A stretch of 25,327 nt of DNA from a virus (Duplodnaviria > Heunggongvirae > Uroviricota > Caudoviricetes): the IMG/VR virus record IMGVR_UViG_2671180357_000004, positions 1-25,327 of that record, one strand, 5' to 3'. The position numbers and the translations under genes are program-made. Shown piece by piece: positions 10,791 to 21,695 of this stretch; the first letter of the stretch is position 1, and the number at the start of each line of letters is the position of its first letter. Below the pieces are notes generated by a model. It saw only the letters and a program-made list of their open reading frames with translations, was not told the DNA's origin and did no database searches.

Positions 10791-11813
10791 GTGAACAGTG
10801 ATAAGCGGAAACTTTATGTAAATACTCTAGCATTAGATTTGAATATCAAGCCATCCAGACCCTATTACCAAATATTATTAAAAACGATAAAAAAGAAAGT
10901 AGCCGATGGGCAGTCAAAGGCTGAAATCGTCGCTTCTATAAAGAACTCGAAAGAGCACCTTGCCAACATCACACCAACCGGTATTATCAACCATCAGAAA
11001 CAAAATATTAGCTTCAAAAAGACGATGCGCAGTTCTTCCGTTCGGGATGACCTACGTAAGCGAAGAATTGAGTACGTTTTAGAAAAGCGGGAGCTGGAAG
11101 CAAAGGATCGCGCAGCGCGAAAAGAACAAGATGAGAAACGTAAAGCTCTTGAAAAAATCAGGATGGAAAACTTACCTGAAATAGTAGAGAACTGCATCGA
11201 CTTTTCTAAACGTCGTGATTTCCAATTATGGTTTCACCGCACTGGTCAGTATCTGAACACCAGTGCTCAAGGCATTGTTAATGAATTCCTAGCTGAATTC
11301 AAAATTGAAAACCCCATAGTAAAAGCAGAGATTAAATTAATTGGGTCTCCTGAAACTCCTCTTATTGTTACCCAACTACCAATAGAGACTAAGAAAGTTG
11401 AATTTATACCCCAACCACTTCCGTCGAAAAGAGTAGGTGAAAAAGTAACGATTACCAGTCGCCCAGATCAGGCTAAATTCGCAGACTCCGTGGGGGTAAA
11501 CTGCCGCTATACCTGCGTTGTTACTGGTGTCAAAACCAGAGTGCGCTGTGAGGCTGCCCATATCGTTGAGCACAAAGCAGGAGGCGTAGACCATTATACA
11601 AATGGGCTATGGTTGCGAGTGGACATTCACCGTTTATTTGATGCCGGTTTATGCGCAATAGAGCCGTCGACAATGATGATCTACTTTAACCCGATGGTGT
11701 TGATCGACGACCCTGATTTGGAAAAATACCACGCTATCCCCATCTCTCAACCGGTTCGCCCGATAAATCCTGACTACCTTATGGCACGCTGGACGATCTT
11801 CAACATCCGATAG
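10791..11813 (+). CDS. HNH nuclease-domain protein (340 aa; uncharacterised N-terminal region plus C-terminal HNH core)
   Basis: C-terminus CVVTGVKTRVRCEAAHIVEHKAGGVDHYTNGLWLRVDIHRLFDAG matches the Cys...His...N...H...D HNH pattern. Only + strand gene in the phage-like block; visibly AT-rich; GTG start. Confidence 0.7.
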   Translation: MNSDKRKLYVNTLALDLNIKPSRPYYQILLKTIKKKVADGQSKAEIVASIKNSKEHLANITPTGIINHQKQNISFKKTMRSSSVRDDLRKRRIEYVLEKRELEAKDRAARKEQDEKRKALEKIRMENLPEIVENCIDFSKRRDFQLWFHRTGQYLNTSAQGIVNEFLAEFKIENPIVKAEIKLIGSPETPLIVTQLPIETKKVEFIPQPLPSKRVGEKVTITSRPDQAKFADSVGVNCRYTCVVTGVKTRVRCEAAHIVEHKAGGVDHYTNGLWLRVDIHRLFDAGLCAIEPSTMMIYFNPMVLIDDPDLEKYHAIPISQPVRPINPDYLMARWTIFNIR

Positions 11814-14400: not shown

Positions 14401-15516
14401 TCACACCGCCACTGGAACCTTGATCCACGGAAGAGGGCTGTAGCCGCACACCTGCACACCTTCCCATTTGAAGTCGTCCAGTTCGGCCCATTCATGCGGG
14501 AAGATGACAACCGGGTCGGACTCTTTGGGCGGCTCGCGCTTCATCAGTTCCTCAACGCCTTCCATGTGGTTGTCGTAGAGATGAACGTCAAAGCCAAAAT
14601 GCACGAATGCGCCAGCCATGTGGCCGGTGATCTTCGCGAGGAAGTGGGTGAGAATGCCGTAACCGGCGATGTTGAACGGCATACCAACAAAGGTATCGAC
14701 ACTGCGTTGAACCAGGCATGAGTTCAGAATGCGTTTCGGGATGCCCAGCTCGTCCAGCATGTTCTCAGTAATGCCGCCATCTCTTTCCAGAAGACACAGC
14801 ATCTGGGTGTAAATGGACTCGTGGCCGTGGCGGTTGTGCTGTATGCCAATGTCGGTGGCCATAGTCAGTCGGGTCTCAAAGTCCAGCTCGCGACTCCACA
14901 GTGAAAACACGAAATGGCATGGCGGCAGCTTCATATCTTCCAGTTCGCCAACATTCCAGGCATTCAGCAGGATGCGACGATCTGTAGGGTTGGTGCGAAG
15001 CGTGTCAACGATACGCTGTAGCTGGTCAATTTCACGGGACAACACAACGCGATCTTCACTTACGCCCAGATACCCCTCGACCTTGTACCCGCGCTCACGG
15101 AACGTGTCGATTTTGCGCAGATACTCGCTATGGCTCACGATGCGAGTGTCTTCCCACCGACGCCATTGCTTGCCATAGACCGGGCCTAAATCGCCATTTT
15201 CATCGGCCCAGGCATCCCAGATTTTGACGCCATTGTCTTTCAGGAACTGGATGTTGCCTGTTCCTTTGAGATACCACTCCAGCTCAACCAGTAACGGCTT
15301 CAGATTGACGGCTTTTCCGGAGATAAGTGGAACAGATCCGCCCGTCAGCATGTAGTAGGAAGGGACATATGAAACACTTTTTGTGCCGGTTCCGGTGCGA
15401 TCACCCGCGTGAACGCCAGTGTTGAGCACCGTTTCAACCACTTTGGCATACGAACCACTGGCAAACTGACCGTTCGTAAAGTCTCGATTCAGTAGGATAG
15501 ACAAAATCAACCTCAC
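14401..15516 (-). CDS. thyA: Thymidylate synthase (ThyA family) with two internal insertions
   Basis: DRTGTGT, WADENGDLGPVYGKQWR, RRILLNAWNVGELEDMKLPPCHF, QRSVDTFVGMPFNIAGY, PWIKVPVAV. 371 codons vs about 264 in E. coli ThyA; start codon uncertain (GTG at 15516, or TTG a few codons downstream). Confidence 0.85.
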   Translation of the reverse strand: MRLILSILLNRDFTNGQFASGSYAKVVETVLNTGVHAGDRTGTGTKSVSYVPSYYMLTGGSVPLISGKAVNLKPLLVELEWYLKGTGNIQFLKDNGVKIWDAWADENGDLGPVYGKQWRRWEDTRIVSHSEYLRKIDTFRERGYKVEGYLGVSEDRVVLSREIDQLQRIVDTLRTNPTDRRILLNAWNVGELEDMKLPPCHFVFSLWSRELDFETRLTMATDIGIQHNRHGHESIYTQMLCLLERDGGITENMLDELGIPKRILNSCLVQRSVDTFVGMPFNIAGYGILTHFLAKITGHMAGAFVHFGFDVHLYDNHMEGVEELMKREPPKESDPVVIFPHEWAELDDFKWEGVQVCGYSPLPWIKVPVAV

Positions 15517-15521
15517 ACAAG

Positions 15522-15540
15522 ATAAGTAAGTACATACATA
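15522..15540. repeat. AT-rich dyad motif, copy E (ATAAGTAAGTACATACATA; degenerate)
   Basis: Between the terminator at 15591-15621 and the thyA start. Confidence 0.4.
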
Positions 15541-15590
15541 TTATTTTATGCAAGTTTATCTGTCAGAAGTGTGTAAGGCTAGGAGGGGAG

Positions 15591-15621
15591 TAAAAAAAAT
15601 GGTGGCTCTTCGGCCACCATT
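15591..15621 (-). terminator. Rho-independent terminator (- strand)
   Basis: On the - strand: AATGGTGGC-cgaaga-GCCACCATT hairpin followed by U8. Confidence 0.6.
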
Positions 15622-15674
15622 GCAATGAGCAATTAAGAACTTGGACAATAAAACACGCCAAGGCAATATATAAT

Positions 15675-15691
15675 GATAAGTACTCACTTAC
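15675..15691. repeat. AT-rich dyad motif, copy F (GATAAGTACTCACTTAC)
   Basis: Overlaps the stop codon of the 15684..16562 gene. Confidence 0.4.
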
Positions 15692-16562
15692 AATTATTTT
15701 TTACCATCTCGTAAAGAGATGAGGACTTCGCCTTCTCAACAAAGCAAGTCAGATCCACATCGCTGTAGGTGGGAGATTTGAGGATCTTGCCATCAGAAAC
15801 CCTGAAACCGATCATCATGTCAGTCCCTTCAGCATGGCGGAACCCCAGATCTTCCTTATCGTATTTGCAATTCTCTACCGCCACACGACGCTCTTCGGCG
15901 TCAGCCGGCCACAGCTTGGTCATGTTGGAACGGTGGATTTCTGCCACCAGCTCAACAATATCGATTCCGAGAAAATCAGCCAGACGGTAGGTCATCATGC
16001 AGGCAACGTAGATTTTGTTCATCACGCGGCGCAGCTCCTGCACCAATTCGGAATCGCTTATCGGCTTCGCTTCAAGTTTGTCAGCCAGCGCATTCAGCAT
16101 TAATGCAGCTTCTTTTGCTTCTTCAAACGGGATAGCCATATCGTCAAAGACCGTGTTGCCCGGAACCATGATGGTGTGGATGAAGCGATCAACACTCTGC
16201 TCTTGGGTGTAGTAACTCATGCCCGTCGAGATGCCGCCTTTGATGGCCACCATTGTGCCGACGCCCACGTAAAGGAAGTCAGCCATCGCGTCCAGCAGTG
16301 CCGTCATATCCCCATTTTTGGCTGCCGGGATGCCCTCGGTAACTGCTTCTTCGTGGATCAGCTTGGCACGCAGACGTAGTAATGCCGGATCTGGAATGGC
16401 ACGGCGTGGGTGCTGAAACAGTGTGTGGAACTGGTCAACCATCAGGTAGATGCTTTCCGTTGTCTTGCCGAAACCGGGATTCAACTCGTAAGGCTCTGGT
16501 TTAAACCCCACGAGTTTGTCTGCGGCAAGTTTCAGATGATCGGTCAGTTTCGTAAATTTCAT
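15684..16562 (-). CDS. Hypothetical protein (292 aa); tentatively an all-alpha NTP pyrophosphohydrolase (MazG-like)
   Basis: ATG with SD AAGGAAAG; segments LIHEEAVTEGIPAAKNGDMTALLDAMADFLYV and YRLADFLGIDIVELVAEIHRSNMTKL resemble MazG-type motifs (weak, from memory). Confidence 0.45.
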   Translation of the reverse strand: MKFTKLTDHLKLAADKLVGFKPEPYELNPGFGKTTESIYLMVDQFHTLFQHPRRAIPDPALLRLRAKLIHEEAVTEGIPAAKNGDMTALLDAMADFLYVGVGTMVAIKGGISTGMSYYTQEQSVDRFIHTIMVPGNTVFDDMAIPFEEAKEAALMLNALADKLEAKPISDSELVQELRRVMNKIYVACMMTYRLADFLGIDIVELVAEIHRSNMTKLWPADAEERRVAVENCKYDKEDLGFRHAEGTDMMIGFRVSDGKILKSPTYSDVDLTCFVEKAKSSSLYEMVKNNCK

Positions 16563-16763
16563 GTTTTCTTTCCTTTAGACTTCTTTTGATACGCCAATTT
16601 TGACCCAGCAGCGCCAGGCCACAAAGTGGTTAAACTCGGCTTAGAGGTATTCGAACTGGCTCGGGCCAGTGCAATCGACAGCGAACTTTGTCAGCGCTTC
16701 ATGCAGCTGGCAGCGGCTCGGTGGGCGTTACGTTTTACGATGCTTATTATGTGTAGCCCAATT

Positions 16764-16789
16764 AAAAAGACCACTATATATAGTGGTCT
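16764..16789 (-). terminator. Rho-independent terminator (- strand)
   Basis: 20-bp perfect palindrome GACCACTATATATAGTGGTC followed on the - strand by TTTTT. Confidence 0.5.
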
Positions 16790-16796
16790 CATGGTA

Positions 16797-16816
16797 ATAG
16801 ATAAGCACTTACCTAT
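16797..16816. repeat. AT-rich dyad motif, copy G (ATAGATAAGCACTTACCTAT)
   Basis: Between the RuvC-like gene stop and the terminator. Confidence 0.5.
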
Positions 16817-16827
16817 CAATTATCAAC

Positions 16828-17397
16828 TTATAAAATTCCAGCAAGAACATCGCGAACCTGACGGAATTGATCAGTTTGCATACCGGTGTAAATCGATGCG
16901 ACAGCGTCCGCAAGGTGCTCGTTTTTATTCACCAGCACTTCCTTGCCCGATTGCTTCCGGCGCAACCACGGGGCGTTTGGCTGCTTCTGCGTAGCCCACT
17001 GAATGATCTCTTCTTTCGACGTAGTCAGCTTATTCCCGACATAGTACTTAATCTCGTTTGGCGTGACCTGTATCAGTGGCTTATCCACACACGCCAGTAC
17101 GCCAAGACAACCACCATAAGAAACCATCGCTCTAGCAGATTGACTGCCTACTGGCAGTTCACAGAACACTAAATGAACTTGGTCAATCAGTGGCTTAATA
17201 CCACGCCAAATCTCGTTCAACCGCCGCATATCGTCACTGTTAACGCGAACTTGCTTTTTCGTATCACCAGCTTTCGTCTCAATGAGATGCAACTTATTGA
17301 CCTGCAATGCACCTGAATCCAGTTCTATTTCTCCGATGGCAACGCCAAAATTTGACAGAGATGGATCGAGACCTGCAACTTTGATTACTTTTTTCAC
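16828..17397 (-). CDS. RuvC-like Holliday junction resolvase
   Basis: KVAGLDPSLSNFGVAIG, LVFCELPVGSQSARAMVSYGGCLGVLACV, NEHLADAVASIYTG resemble RuvC catalytic regions; GTG start with SD GGAGG. Confidence 0.65.
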   Translation of the reverse strand: MKKVIKVAGLDPSLSNFGVAIGEIELDSGALQVNKLHLIETKAGDTKKQVRVNSDDMRRLNEIWRGIKPLIDQVHLVFCELPVGSQSARAMVSYGGCLGVLACVDKPLIQVTPNEIKYYVGNKLTTSKEEIIQWATQKQPNAPWLRRKQSGKEVLVNKNEHLADAVASIYTGMQTDQFRQVRDVLAGIL

Positions 17398-17591
17398 TCT
17401 GTGACCTCCATTTCAACAAAATGCGGTAGATTGTGCTCTTCGATAAATCGCTTACGCGCTAAGTAAGCCTCCAATTCATCGTGACATTGATACAAGAAGA
17501 CACACTCTCCTTTCCACACAACTCTAGCAACCCAAACCTTGTTCGTTTTGCAGTAATGAACGCCAGTAAACTTCGACGTACTACCATCCAC
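17394..17591 (-). CDS. Small AP2-like DNA-binding domain protein (65 aa)
   Basis: GVHYCKTNKVWVARVVWKGECVFLYQCHDELEAYLAR resembles the AP2 fold pattern; GTG start with SD AAGGGAAA; stop overlaps the RuvC-like start (GTGA). Confidence 0.45.
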   Translation of the reverse strand: MDGSTSKFTGVHYCKTNKVWVARVVWKGECVFLYQCHDELEAYLARKRFIEEHNLPHFVEMEVTE

Positions 17592-17727
17592 TTTCCCTTG
17601 TTTATTTGCACTCTGGACGTGCTTGTCAGCCCACCTCAGATTCCCTGGTTCATATCCCTTGCTGGAGTCGATGCGATCAAGCGTAACCCCCTCTACAACT
17701 CTCTCCGTATCGGAAATTTTGGTCTCC

Positions 17728-18474
17728 TTACCACGTAGCCCAGGTTGGGCATTCCATTAGTTTCTGTTCAAGTGTCTTCTCCGGCTCGCGAGTTGGCGGC
17801 TTCGGAATGTCGTTAACTACGTGAATGCCATCGTTGATCAGAACGCCTGCAGCAATATCTGCATCAATCATGCTCTGGCCGATGAAATGCCGCATGATGT
17901 CAATAAGTTGGCACGCAGCCTTTTCATTCGCGTTGAATACGTGGGGGAGGAGAACTTCAATAATCGCTACTTCACATCCCTTCTCGTAAAAGCAGAGTTT
18001 CGCCCGCTTTGAAATTGGCGCGTGCCGGTCATAGTCAACAGAGAAGCTGGCGAAGGCAGCACCCGGCATTGCAACGTGATCCGCGCGTGCGTTAGCGTGT
18101 CGAATCAGATTAGTGAATGCGGTGCTGATGTGCGTCTCCATTGCATTGAAGAGTGCATTTTCTTGGATGTTCAGCGTTCCGGTTTCAGGAATCACAACGA
18201 ACCCCGGCCCAGAATGTGGGAGATATCCACCTTCCGTAAATGGATTAATAAGGATCGGCGCAGTGCTTCCTGACGGCAGATTAGCCAAGCTCGGCATCAA
18301 AGGAGTCGATGACAATAGATTGGTTAATACCGAGAACTGGTCGTCGCTGATGTTTACGTTTTTCCACAAAAGTGCAGGCGGAGTTACTTTTGCTGTATGG
18401 TTGTTTATCAGCTTTATAGACTGCATCACGGCAAACATCTGCAAAAACTGCGTGCGGCTCAAGTTAAACGACAT
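17728..18474 (-). CDS. Hypothetical protein (248 aa)
   Basis: ATG with SD AGAGGGG; no recognisable domain. Confidence 0.5.
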   Translation of the reverse strand: MSFNLSRTQFLQMFAVMQSIKLINNHTAKVTPPALLWKNVNISDDQFSVLTNLLSSTPLMPSLANLPSGSTAPILINPFTEGGYLPHSGPGFVVIPETGTLNIQENALFNAMETHISTAFTNLIRHANARADHVAMPGAAFASFSVDYDRHAPISKRAKLCFYEKGCEVAIIEVLLPHVFNANEKAACQLIDIMRHFIGQSMIDADIAAGVLINDGIHVVNDIPKPPTREPEKTLEQKLMECPTWATW

Positions 18475-20380
18475 AGCTGCGCCCCTCTTTAACTTCGACA
18501 GTGATAATTTCCCGGAACCACGATTTCATCTCTTTGTGGGAGATGATCATCACTGTGCCACGTTCACGCGCTTTGGCTTCCAGAATCCCCATGAGACGCT
18601 CCAGACCGGCTGTGTCGAGCGCGTCGTCAATTTCATCACCGATAAATAGCTCGATATTCTTACTGGCGCGACTGGCAACCAGATCCTGCAAAGCCAGAGA
18701 GCACGCAATACGTACCTTACGCTTCTCACCACCAGACAAAGTCTGGAAGGATTTGCTGGAGCCTGTTTTGATTACGCTGATATTGAATTTGTCGCGATAC
18801 TCACCTTTCTTCGTTGTCTCCATTGTCGACCATTCGGCAACGATATTGCCGTCCGACAGCGTGTTGAGATACTCCGCAGTCCTGATGTTCAGGAAAGGCG
18901 TAACGGAGGTCAGGATGTGTGAACGCACGCCTGCTGGGGAGTAAACCTGGCGGGCCTTCTCCAGCAACAGAGCCTGTTCCTGAATGCTCTTTAACTCATT
19001 TTTAAGTACTGCATGATTAGATTTATTGGCAGCCAGGTTGTCTTCATGGCGCTTAATAACGGCCAGAAATGGGTTTGTTTCCGCCATGATGCGATTCACT
19101 TCAGTACGCGCCCGCGCAACCATCGCTTCGACGGCCACAACTTCACGTTCGCGATGACGCAGCGCACTTAGCTCATTGGTCAGGCGTTCTATTGTGGAGA
19201 TGATTTCTGAGACGTCGGGTGTAGCTGCGACCAGTGCAGACTCGATACCGAGCGCTTTCTCAAGACGAGCCTTGTGTTGAGCCACTGCCGCTGCTGATGT
19301 CTGCGCAAGGCCGATCTCATTGCGCGCTTGTTCAATGAAGCTCTCCTTCACCGTGGATAAATCTTCTTCGCAGTAGGGCTTTCCGCACGTAATGCAGGGT
19401 GCCCCGATCTTTGTGCTGACCTCTTCAGCTTTGGTTTTAAACGAGCGAGCACGGTTTATCGACTCGTTCTGTGCCGCTTCTGAAGTACGGATGCTTGAGC
19501 GGATCTCAGTAATAGCACTGCGCACCTTCAGCAGTTTGGCGTCATGCTCTTCTTTGGAGGCCAGCTTGCTGCGTTCGCCAGCAATCGCGTTTTCCGTATC
19601 ACGGATCTGTTCCGGCAGCGAGCGAATTTCCATCTCGACTTCAGACAGTGTTACCTCCGCGCCAGCCAAATCGGCTCGGGCCTTGTCCAGACGCTCGCCG
19701 CGATCGCGCTCCCAGCTTTCAGAGGACGCTTTGGCCGCCTCAATCTCTGACTGTGCAGTCTCGATAAGCGTGAGACAGGCGTCCATTTTGGATTTGGTAA
19801 CGTCCATACGTGCGGCAGCTGCATTAGCACGCTCGCGGGCAATGGCATAGGCTCGCGTCAATCGGTCGACGCCAGCAGCTTCTTCAACGATGGTTTTGAG
19901 GCTCTTGTCGGACATACCGGGCAGATCTGGCATCGCTTCCTGACTGGCGTAGATGGACGCCATGAACACCTCTTTCGATGCCCCAATCAGACGTTCTACG
20001 AACGTCTGTGTCAGCGTGTCCTTGCCTTTGGTCATATCACCGTCTTCACCACGGACGATTAGTCGGTTCTTGAACTCTTTGTGTTTACGATGGCGAATGA
20101 TCGCGTATTTCTTACCTTCGTCTTCAACTGTAACCATCACACGGCAGTTCTTCTCATGGCCCGTCGACAGCACATCATCGCCTTTGACGCCATGTGCAGT
20201 CTCACCATACAGACACCACATTAAGCTATTCATCAGAGTGGATTTCCCGGCGCCATTGCTGGCAGCAGACGTATCGCCACTGTTCACACCCTGGATCAGC
20301 ACCAGTCCACGCTGGTCTAACTCGACTTCTGCGCTGGCGATTGCCATAAAATTTTCAACCTGGAGCTTTAAAAACTTCAT
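18464..20380 (-). CDS. sbcC: SbcC/Rad50-like ATPase (recombination nuclease subunit)
   Basis: 638 aa from ATG MKFLKLQVENF (SD GAGGTG). Walker A NGAGKST, zinc hook CITCGKP, signature LSGGEKRKV, Walker B LFIGDEIDDALD, H-loop IISHKE, long coiled-coil middle. Confidence 0.85.
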   Translation of the reverse strand: MKFLKLQVENFMAIASAEVELDQRGLVLIQGVNSGDTSAASNGAGKSTLMNSLMWCLYGETAHGVKGDDVLSTGHEKNCRVMVTVEDEGKKYAIIRHRKHKEFKNRLIVRGEDGDMTKGKDTLTQTFVERLIGASKEVFMASIYASQEAMPDLPGMSDKSLKTIVEEAAGVDRLTRAYAIARERANAAAARMDVTKSKMDACLTLIETAQSEIEAAKASSESWERDRGERLDKARADLAGAEVTLSEVEMEIRSLPEQIRDTENAIAGERSKLASKEEHDAKLLKVRSAITEIRSSIRTSEAAQNESINRARSFKTKAEEVSTKIGAPCITCGKPYCEEDLSTVKESFIEQARNEIGLAQTSAAAVAQHKARLEKALGIESALVAATPDVSEIISTIERLTNELSALRHREREVVAVEAMVARARTEVNRIMAETNPFLAVIKRHEDNLAANKSNHAVLKNELKSIQEQALLLEKARQVYSPAGVRSHILTSVTPFLNIRTAEYLNTLSDGNIVAEWSTMETTKKGEYRDKFNISVIKTGSSKSFQTLSGGEKRKVRIACSLALQDLVASRASKNIELFIGDEIDDALDTAGLERLMGILEAKARERGTVMIISHKEMKSWFREIITVEVKEGRSYVV

Positions 20381-20568
20381 ATAACACCTCTGATATCGTG
20401 TGTTAACTTTTGACCATCTTTCAATCTGAACTCCGTATGCGCGGGGAAGGATCTGCGATTCAATAAGCCTTTTCTGGTTAGCCTTCCAAGATAAAACGCT
20501 ACGGGATTTCCTCCTGAAGGGTATGGCTTGTGAAACATAACCGTCTGGCCTTTTTGAAGTTTTTTCAT
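20377..20568 (-). CDS. Small hypothetical protein (63 aa) translationally coupled to sbcC
   Basis: ATG MKKLQKG; stop TGA overlaps the sbcC ATG (ATGA). Confidence 0.4.
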   Translation of the reverse strand: MKKLQKGQTVMFHKPYPSGGNPVAFYLGRLTRKGLLNRRSFPAHTEFRLKDGQKLTHDIRGVI

Positions 20569-20609
20569 CACGATGGCAAACTCTCGAAAGCTCCCATAAT
20601 AACTTTGCC

Positions 20610-21695
20610 TCACACAGCCTCCGCACTCTCTGCTTCGGTCAAGATCTCCTGACACAGTATGTCCAGCTTGCTCAGGTCGAAGCCGCCGTCAGTGTCGTGA
20701 ACGATCTTGCAGTACGCCGCAACGGACTCGCCCAGGCTGTCAATCTTGCTGGTCTCCGCAGTACTGGCAGCGCCTTCCATCATCGATGCCTTGCGAATGA
20801 AGTTGCAGACGACACCCTTCGCGCCCATTGTTTTCAGGACGTTCTGAAGTTTGATGCCTTCTTCATCGCTCTCAACAACGGCACGGAAGCGCACGTAGTT
20901 ACCGCGAATCTGATCGTCATCTACATCGTCCTCAAGGTTCACGAATTTAGGTGCCGAGGTTTCGTGGTGAGTGAATGAGCCGTCCGGTTTGACGATCATG
21001 AAGCCGGCCAGTGAACCAACATCCCCCCAATTCTGGTGTGTCAGCGCCCCGATACTTACCACTCCAGGCAGCACTTCTTTGTGGTTGTGGTAGTGCCCGG
21101 ACAACAATAAACGGAAGCCGATATCTTTCAGTTCCTGTGCGTCGATGCCGACATCGGGCATAGTGGGGATCGCTTTGTTGATTGAGGTATGTACAACAAC
21201 ATCATGGTTGTCACCATCCAGCCCGGAACGCAGCGTTTTGAGATCGCTGATAAGTTCTGCGTGGTTATTACGCCAGCTAATCAGATGGACGGTTACGTCG
21301 CCCATTTTGATGGAATGAGGACGTTTGCCGCAGACGATTTCCACACCGATTGAGCGCAGAGAGGCTGCTGCATTGGCGCTGTATACGGAATCGTTGGTTT
21401 CGAGGTCGTGGTTGCCAGCCAGCATTACCACCTTGAGACCCAACTCTTTGATGATCCACTCGTAAGTTTCGGTCACGAAATGCAGAACGGAAGGTGATAT
21501 AGCACCGCGAACATGGAAGGTATCACCAGCTACCAGCATGTGCTTACAGCCAGCAGCTTTCATCGCTTTGGCCGCCTCCTTCGTAGCGTCCAGTTGGATC
21601 TCCAGCCGAGAGTTAAGCCCGTCAGCGTTTGTTGTCGCAAAAGCATCCCAACGATGATAATGGGGATCTGATATTACCCCGTATGGCAATGTCAT
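20610..21695 (-). CDS. sbcD: SbcD/Mre11-like nuclease (calcineurin-like phosphoesterase)
   Basis: ISDPHYH, VAGDTFH, LAGNHD, SGHYHNH motifs; SD AAGGAAAAG. Confidence 0.85.
   Translation of the reverse strand: MTLPYGVISDPHYHRWDAFATTNADGLNSRLEIQLDATKEAAKAMKAAGCKHMLVAGDTFHVRGAISPSVLHFVTETYEWIIKELGLKVVMLAGNHDLETNDSVYSANAAASLRSIGVEIVCGKRPHSIKMGDVTVHLISWRNNHAELISDLKTLRSGLDGDNHDVVVHTSINKAIPTMPDVGIDAQELKDIGFRLLLSGHYHNHKEVLPGVVSIGALTHQNWGDVGSLAGFMIVKPDGSFTHHETSAPKFVNLEDDVDDDQIRGNYVRFRAVVESDEEGIKLQNVLKTMGAKGVVCNFIRKASMMEGAASTAETSKIDSLGESVAAYCKIVHDTDGGFDLSKLDILCQEILTEAESAEAV

Follow-up and report, generated by a model that had tools for sequence, protein, structure and literature searches.

Free-standing homing-endonuclease genes, for example those of the T4 seg/mob type, pass through a cycle of invasion, decay and loss. 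For the Vibrio phage ICP1, Barth et al. (2023; PMC10448857) defined the 'IPA-HNH' homing-endonuclease genes gp59, gp209 and gp115/gp116, which combine an atypical HNH domain, missed by the Pfam HNH_3 model, with a C-terminal AP2 domain. One member, gp115/gp116, is split by a frameshift, and its separate downstream ORF encodes only AP2 (PMC10448857). The same study places the nuclease genes at boundaries of sequence exchange, a picture that matches the locus described below (PMC10448857). HNH-AP2 endonucleases of cyanobacteria, ciliates and phages go back to Magnani, Sjolander and Hake (2004), whose work we take as it is related in PMC10448857; as far as described there, AP2 acts as the DNA-binding module of a selfish endonuclease of the HNH family, and the HNH motifs are recognisable. 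DNA-binding domains of the homing-endonuclease type, AP2 among them, are also proposed to have turned into small or modular regulators, as in CapR of the PLE satellites, CasPR and the plant AP2/ERF proteins, the CasPR anti-CRISPR silencers being composed of CapR and AP2 (bioRxiv 10.64898/2026.02.23.707548).

We analysed a stretch of 25,327 nucleotides (the window; IMG/VR record IMGVR_UViG_2671180357_000004), in which a 65-codon ORF overlapping a RuvC-like resolvase gene had been presented, in a preliminary description, as a free-standing minimal AP2 gene. Our comparisons point to a different origin. The 65-residue 'AP2 protein' is very probably the tail of an HNH-like/AP2 homing-endonuclease-like gene that was broken by a 418-bp deletion. 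Judged by its sequence, the window copy is to be classed as a pseudogene of the HNH-AP2/IPA-HNH family, not as a gene encoding a member: an HNH-like part and AP2 stand in one polypeptide in the intact allele and not in the window copy. The intact parent shares with the ICP1 IPA-HNH genes an atypical HNH-like N-terminal part followed by a C-terminal AP2 domain, as well as its free-standing location beside replication and recombination genes at exchange boundaries, and the window copy resembles gp115/gp116 in that inactivation left an AP2-only downstream ORF. However, the relationship is distant (21% identity to gp59 by BLASTP), the gene resides in an SSU5-like E. coli phage-plasmid and was inactivated by a 418-bp deletion instead of a frameshift, and the parent has an extra N-terminal zinc ribbon, unlike the ICP1 proteins. 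As in the HNH-AP2 endonucleases of Magnani et al., AP2 in the parent would provide DNA binding to a selfish endonuclease of the HNH family; unlike in those proteins, so far as PMC10448857 portrays them, an Arg replaces the catalytic His in the parent family and the window ORF scores below the Pfam AP2 threshold. The kind of element is already known, with gp115/gp116 as a directly analogous published precedent, and the novelty lies only in its presence, and in the series of its decay stages, among SSU5-like phage-plasmids, where it is apparently documented for the first time.

The locus and its deletion allele

The window region is 100% identical to IncFIB plasmids of E. coli and ~94% identical to the Salmonella phage SSU5, the SSU5 match falling in two pieces. 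Because of these matches, we assign the window to the SSU5-like phage-plasmids of E. coli. SSU5 itself has its phrog_2117 gene and its RuvC-like gene spaced by 11 bp, with no gene between them. The features of the corresponding site in the window are collected in Table 1. The resolvase call of the preliminary description is upheld by the match of the RuvC-like ORF to phrog_159, 'RuvC-like Holliday junction resolvase' (E=1.7e-53). Equally correct was the reported overlap of stop and start, as the TGA of the 65-codon ORF (17396-17394) and the GTG of the RuvC-like gene (17397-17395) form the sequence GTGA at 17397-17394.

Table 1. Features at the insertion site, in window coordinates.
Feature	Position	Strand	Remark
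RuvC-like (RNase H-fold) gene, 189 aa, GTG start	16828..17397	minus	phrog_159
65-aa ORF, GTG start, TGA stop	17394..17591	minus	residues 194-258 of the intact 258-aa protein
Complete 3' remnant of 323 nt, covering codons 152-258 and the stop	17394..17716	minus	100% identical to the intact allele
GGAGG SD of the RuvC-like gene	17405..17409	minus	inside the last codons of the remnant
ATT codon made at the junction	17715..17717	minus	in frame with the 108-codon remnant
Deletion junction, 418 bp missing	17716..17717	minus	segment present in pCP53-113k and in 30 further plasmids
36-nt 5' stub of the CDS annotated with 258 aa	17717..17752	minus	overlaps the end of the upstream gene
SD AAGGAG within the 5' stub	17729-17724	minus	
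phrog_2117 gene, conserved, 248 aa, left flank of the insertion site	17728..18474	minus	94% identical to SSU5

The plasmid pCP53-113k carries an intact allele at the same site, a 777-bp coding sequence annotated as 'hypothetical protein' (WP_063091564.1). A four-way alignment of the window, the intact allele, the pNT1F34 allele and SSU5 revealed that the lack of 418 bp is all that separates the window from the intact allele; both the intact allele and the deletion are observed directly. The missing segment spans the GTG behind the AAGGAG SD up to codon ~151, codons ~13-151 being absent from the window, and as 418 is not divisible by 3, the annotated frame ends after 19 codons. The 3' remnant retains the beta-beta-alpha 'LDRID...N' motif upstream of the 65-codon ORF. 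PGAP leaves the 330-bp gap free of any gene or pseudogene annotation, and the exact 65-residue sequence is listed as a hypothetical protein in some GenBank submissions.

We propose that a subset of SSU5-like plasmids carries a free-standing HNH-like/AP2 gene between the phrog_2117 and RuvC-like genes. Its product would consist of a zinc ribbon, a helical module, an atypical HNH-like beta-beta-alpha unit and AP2, i.e. the HNH-AP2 ('IPA-HNH') architecture. In the window lineage, the 418-bp deletion would have taken the start codon and the first ~139 codons, and the gene would therefore be dead. The 65-codon ORF, which is the first ATG-, GTG- or TTG-initiated ORF within the 323-nt remnant, would merely mark the first start available in the leftover 3' end. 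It is no chance ORF, because the stop-to-stop frame around it (17397-17756) matches the profile of the parent family at E=7e-40, the match covering only profile positions 130-228 of 230. The claim of a free-standing minimal AP2 gene had to be given up accordingly, as the ORF is what the 418-bp loss left at the 3' end.

Two other origins of the short allele were considered and rejected. The 418 bp are not an insertion into an ancestrally short gene, because with the segment in place the ORF runs without interruption and is homologous from end to end to ~230-residue relatives from many phages. Nor is the junction an assembly artefact, as it recurs in identical form in 12 NCBI contigs and in 7 complete plasmids of PLSDB. 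Given that the 7 PLSDB plasmids come from several countries and hosts, the deletion is stably inherited; this speaks against a dead gene, as do the intactness of the ORF, which encodes a complete domain with a confidently predicted fold, and its listing as a hypothetical protein in GenBank. A search with the family profile found no paralogue of the parent in the window. As a separate observation, the 340-residue ORF at 10791-11813 contains a Pfam HNH_2 domain (E=7e-11) and gave no match to the HNH/AP2 family profile; by these matches it should be another HNH-type protein of the window, unrelated to the parent family.

The AP2 fold and the intact parent protein

Profile searches gave the AP2 assignment of the 65-codon ORF partial backing. 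Pfam AP2 (PF00847) matches it weakly (E=0.045, model positions 1-30 of 54), but the score of 14.5 bits lies below the gathering threshold of 33.3 bits; phrog_99, 'HNH endonuclease', matches at E=7.6e-9. An AF2 model built with 30 homologues (pLDDT 88.4) predicts a beta3-alpha topology, with strands at residues 11-14, 19-26 and 29-36 and a helix at 39-53. When this model was compared to the PDB with Foldseek, the best matches were all AP2 domains, headed by Arabidopsis TEM1 (7et4, TMq 0.71, prob 1.0) and also including WRINKLED1 (7wq5), Plasmodium AP2 (3igm) and AtERF1 (1gcc, TMq 0.64, TMt 0.66). G10 ('GV'), W20 ('WxA') and A42 of the helix are conserved in the AP2 part. The arginines of the plant pattern, which we take to be 'YRGVRxR...W', are T, H and C in the ORF ('FTGVHYC'). 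Sequence likeness is weak and structural likeness good, and we regard the AP2-type fold, directly visible in the predicted structure, as real. The ORF is AP2-like as first described, with a confident model and plant AP2 domains as top Foldseek matches, and its fold is of the kind joined to phage HNH homing endonucleases.

Relatives of the 65 residues were searched among 1.84 billion representative proteins. Among the best 150, only 2 have 100 aa or fewer and 8 have 150 aa or fewer; the others have several domains, in many cases with AP2 repeated in tandem. An AP2 domain is rarely found alone among these best 150 relatives, and this is consistent with the window copy being a fragment.

The parent gene has 258 annotated codons. 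The true start is probably the GTG at codon 13 behind AAGGAG, giving 246 codons, as supported by ~55 homologues from phage contigs of metagenomes, most of them 222-252 aa long, whose alignment begins at about residue 25. An AF2 model of the full-length protein (pLDDT 89.4) predicts, at the N-terminus, a zinc-ribbon-like unit of three strands containing four Cys, followed by a helical module with the conserved signature YxxWxxMxxRCxNP...YxxYGxRGI. Residues 162-189 ('LDRIDxxxGYxxGNLRW....Q..N') form a predicted beta-beta-alpha unit, and the C-terminal AP2 domain (204-245) has the beta3-alpha topology.

Family searches with the full-length parent led to PHROG 'HNH endonuclease' families, with phrog_374 at 5e-35 and phrog_3377, phrog_2081 and phrog_99 as further matches (5e-35 to 1e-11 across the families). 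Relatives were detected by tblastn in 826 phage records, annotated as HNH endonuclease or AP2 protein, and the BFVD returned 162 structural matches carrying the same names. Of the founding IPA-HNH members, gp59 was compared by hhalign (the others being gp209 and gp115-116), and the family alignment matched it over 107 columns with 87.9% probability and E=3.2e-6. Pfam and NCBIfam gave no matches to the full-length parent, a PDB sequence search with it returned noise only (E >= 0.28), and in a Foldseek search of the PDB with the whole parent model the only hit was a weak match to the PacI HNH (prob 0.20). An hhalign comparison of the parent family to a canonical HNH_3 protein found no similarity (1.4% probability), and the label 'endonuclease' therefore rests on family annotation and distribution. 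The family motif contains an invariant R166 preceded by D165 ('LDRID') and invariant N177 and N189, and has no conserved His. R166 presumably occupies the position of the catalytic His in HNH_3 proteins. Despite this substitution, we infer that the intact parent protein would be an active homing nuclease.

Alleles of the gene among SSU5-like plasmids

PLSDB holds 31 intact alleles, 7 of the window type with the 418-bp deletion, 2 of the pNT1F34 type and 1 truncated by IS1. The empty site is observed directly in SSU5 and ~216 PLSDB plasmids, and the plasmids without the gene comprise pMT1-type plasmids of Yersinia and SSU5-like ones of Salmonella, Enterobacter and Citrobacter. The allele of pNT1F34-108k (1399-1576) has undergone a separate, in-frame deletion of 570 bp flanked by the 9-bp direct repeat GCGTAAGCG, leaving a 68-codon ORF that lacks the AP2 domain and keeps the SD of the RuvC-like gene. 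In the single IS1-truncated PLSDB record, the gene is cut by an IS1A rearrangement. Among the complete E. coli genomes of RefSeq, the junction region was matched in 27 and the deleted segment in 23, all on plasmids; the number of deletion alleles in this set is approximate, being taken as the difference of the two counts, and an 80-nt query spanning the junction is non-discriminating, as the search joins both halves across the intact gene.

Further broken forms occur among public proteins, which diverge after residue 164, 177 or 192, and in one public protein the N-terminus of phrog_2117 is fused directly to the AP2 tail. Other public fusion ORFs, like the first one related to window 17394-21695, join the N-terminus of an SbcD-like metallophosphoesterase to the C-terminus of phrog_2117, and these imply loss of the SbcC-like gene. 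Either the block of recombination genes around the site is deletion-prone, or the fusion ORFs are misassemblies. The SbcC-like ORF of the window itself (18464-20626; 720 aa with a GTG start in the mechanical ORF list) extends ~82 codons further upstream than the start annotated in SSU5 and RefSeq (638 aa, 1917 bp); this longer form, which overlaps the SbcD-like gene, is probably an over-extension.

A homologue with 61% identity occupies the same intergenic site in a divergent contig whose flanks are ~49-61% identical at the DNA level, and other homologues lie near the Sak4/AAA_24 genes of N4-like phages, at different sites. Compared to SSU5, the upstream phrog_2117 gene keeps an identity of 94% as far as the insertion site. 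The RuvC-like gene on the other side falls into two parts, its first ~300 nt (17098-17397) being 52-73% and its last 270 nt 95-98% identical to SSU5. Exactly 40 PLSDB records contain the divergent 5' segment at >=99% identity, the other 349 matches being <=80% identical. These 40 records are the carriers of the HNH/AP2 gene or its remnants; the linkage, again a direct observation, is complete. A sporadic gene next to a divergent flank is the picture expected of a homing gene whose flank was co-converted or is immune to cleavage. Judged from these alignments, the allele distribution appears to behave like that of a homing-endonuclease gene in its sporadic occurrence, its use of the same site in a divergent relative and its linked flank.

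The likeness to decaying homing genes extends to three points. Present, absent and broken alleles are found at one site among close relatives, the gene was inactivated several times independently, and the linked divergent flank looks like a co-conversion tract or an immune target allele. Compared to the T4-type seg/mob genes, homing and the cleavage site are putative for the window element. The locus shows every stage in the life of a homing gene, from the empty site and the intact gene to several independent decay products, in a clinically common group of phage-plasmids that includes relatives of pMT1 and pHCM2. It should be a convenient natural test bed for whether His-less 'IPA-HNH'-type proteins truly cut DNA; otherwise, its practical significance is modest.

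The parent might also be a nuclease-dead, AP2-type DNA-binding accessory protein with a function in regulation or anti-defence, its patchy distribution reflecting ordinary accessory-gene flux; the window copy would still be a deletion remnant. We consider this unlikely, although the absent catalytic His, with an invariant Arg at its position, the missing Pfam HNH match and the lack of profile similarity to the HNH_3 protein are all in its favour, and AP2/CapR-type proteins can act as transcriptional silencers. Accessory-gene flux fits poorly with the filling of an identical intergenic site in very divergent backbones and with the tight linkage to a divergent flank allele that ends in a sharp breakpoint. 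The scattering of relatives beside replication and recombination genes in unrelated phages, the repeated independent inactivation of the gene and its relationship to the ICP1 IPA-HNH genes, which are located at recombination boundaries, likewise speak for a homing gene.

Expression signals and the fate of the remnant

The RuvC-like start has a predicted SD pairing of -10.0 kcal/mol (GGAGG), whereas the GTG of the 65-codon ORF has a predicted pairing of -5.3 kcal/mol at too short a spacing. The AAGGAG orphaned by the deletion is predicted to pair at -9.2 kcal/mol and lies 6 nt before the in-frame ATT (17715-17729). This AAGGAG directly serves the RuvC-like ATG in SSU5, and precedes the GTG at codon 13 in the intact allele. 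In the gene-carrying plasmids, the RuvC-like GTG is served instead by the GGAGG located in the last codons of the inserted gene, and both deletion alleles, the window type and that of pNT1F34, retain the 3' end bearing it. The remnant probably persists in part because its last codons hold the SD and start context of the RuvC-like gene. Its 3' end was probably kept by selection for RuvC-like expression together with the recent date of the deletion, which is indicated by the absence of further mutations in the remnant.

These signals also bear on the coupling and partnership with the resolvase that had been suggested for the ORF, and they leave little of it standing. Coupling is not required, because the RuvC-like gene has its own strong SD, and the GTGA overlap is no evidence of partnership, because it was inherited from the intact gene. 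Co-occurrence with the RuvC-like gene is not conserved either, as the partner is missing in SSU5 and most plasmids.

We infer that translation of the remnant, if it occurs, does not reach a useful level. Some translation is possible, because the locus lies in a transcribed operon and a strong SD faces an in-frame ATT, which by its position could conceivably act as a weak non-canonical start for a ~108-residue product. AUU start codons are very inefficient. A first alternative to a dead gene starts from such translation: the remnant would be made, as 65 aa from the GTG at 17591 or ~108 aa from the ATT, and would have been domesticated as a small DNA-binding protein that could, for example, occupy the target of the parental endonuclease and so guard against related homing endonucleases, or tune its neighbours. 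In support, the AP2 domain is complete and confidently folded in prediction, the -9.2 kcal/mol SD is placed 6 nt before the ATT, the allele was seen in several independent isolates, and CapR, plant AP2 and CasPR are precedents for the co-option of DNA-binding domains from homing endonucleases. However, CapR, CasPR and plant AP2 proteins are conserved, expressed and selected, whereas the window ORF is a fragment that has stayed unmodified, has a poor start signal and is not conserved as a gene of its own. The 100% identity of the remnant to the intact allele gives no sign of adaptation, the GTG has a poor SD at poor spacing, the ATT would be an inefficient start, and PGAP annotates nothing at the remnant. 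Moreover, short relatives are rare (just 2 of <=100 aa and 8 of <=150 aa in the best 150), and the pNT1F34 and IS1 lineages destroy the AP2 part instead of keeping it. Taken together, we hold domestication to be quite improbable.

Less credible still is that an AP2 protein of 65 or ~108 aa is made by accident and acts as a nuclease-free site-blocker or local repressor at the parental target; if true, the locus would offer an early snapshot of a homing-endonuclease DNA-binding domain turning into a regulator, as proposed for CapR, CasPR and plant AP2. Finally, a genuine free-standing minimal AP2 gene, coupled to and partnered with the RuvC-like resolvase, can be dismissed almost entirely: the GTGA overlap is real and the AP2 fold supported, but an intact 258-residue parent sits at the same locus in 31 plasmids, from which the window differs only by the 418-bp deletion, and the RuvC-like gene possesses its own SD and does without a partner in SSU5 and about 216 or more plasmids. 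With the preferred reading of a broken homing-endonuclease-like gene, a mis-annotation is avoided, as the tidy 65-residue 'AP2 transcription factor coupled to resolvase' turns out to be a pseudogene fragment.

Intergenic dyads had been put forward as binding sites of the AP2-like protein, an idea that found no support. The interval 16500-18500 has just one strong dyad, the perfect palindrome of 22 bp at 16768-16789, AGACCACTATATATAGTGGTCT, of which the window contains no second copy. It lies downstream of the RuvC-like gene, is followed by a T-rich tract and resembles a terminator on the minus strand; immediately upstream of it, at 16819-16791, is a weak promoter-like site. As a single, terminator-like copy, the palindrome was rejected as an AP2 operator set.

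The palindrome sits in a spacer of 265 bp that separates the RuvC-like gene from a gene for a MazG/PRA-PH-like pyrophosphohydrolase (15684-16562). Also downstream of the RuvC-like gene is a 371-residue thymidylate synthase, which Pfam matches in two separate stretches. Where the window has the MazG-like protein and thymidylate synthase (within 14401-16707), the SSU5 sequence compared with it (731-3046) carries NrdA/NrdB; the similarity to SSU5 ends near 16707, which implies a module swap adjoining the homing-gene site. Type I restriction-modification genes are found near the start of the window, with an HsdS-like specificity subunit at 173-841 and a 1078-residue HsdR at 842-4078, the latter with a TTG start in the mechanical ORF list.
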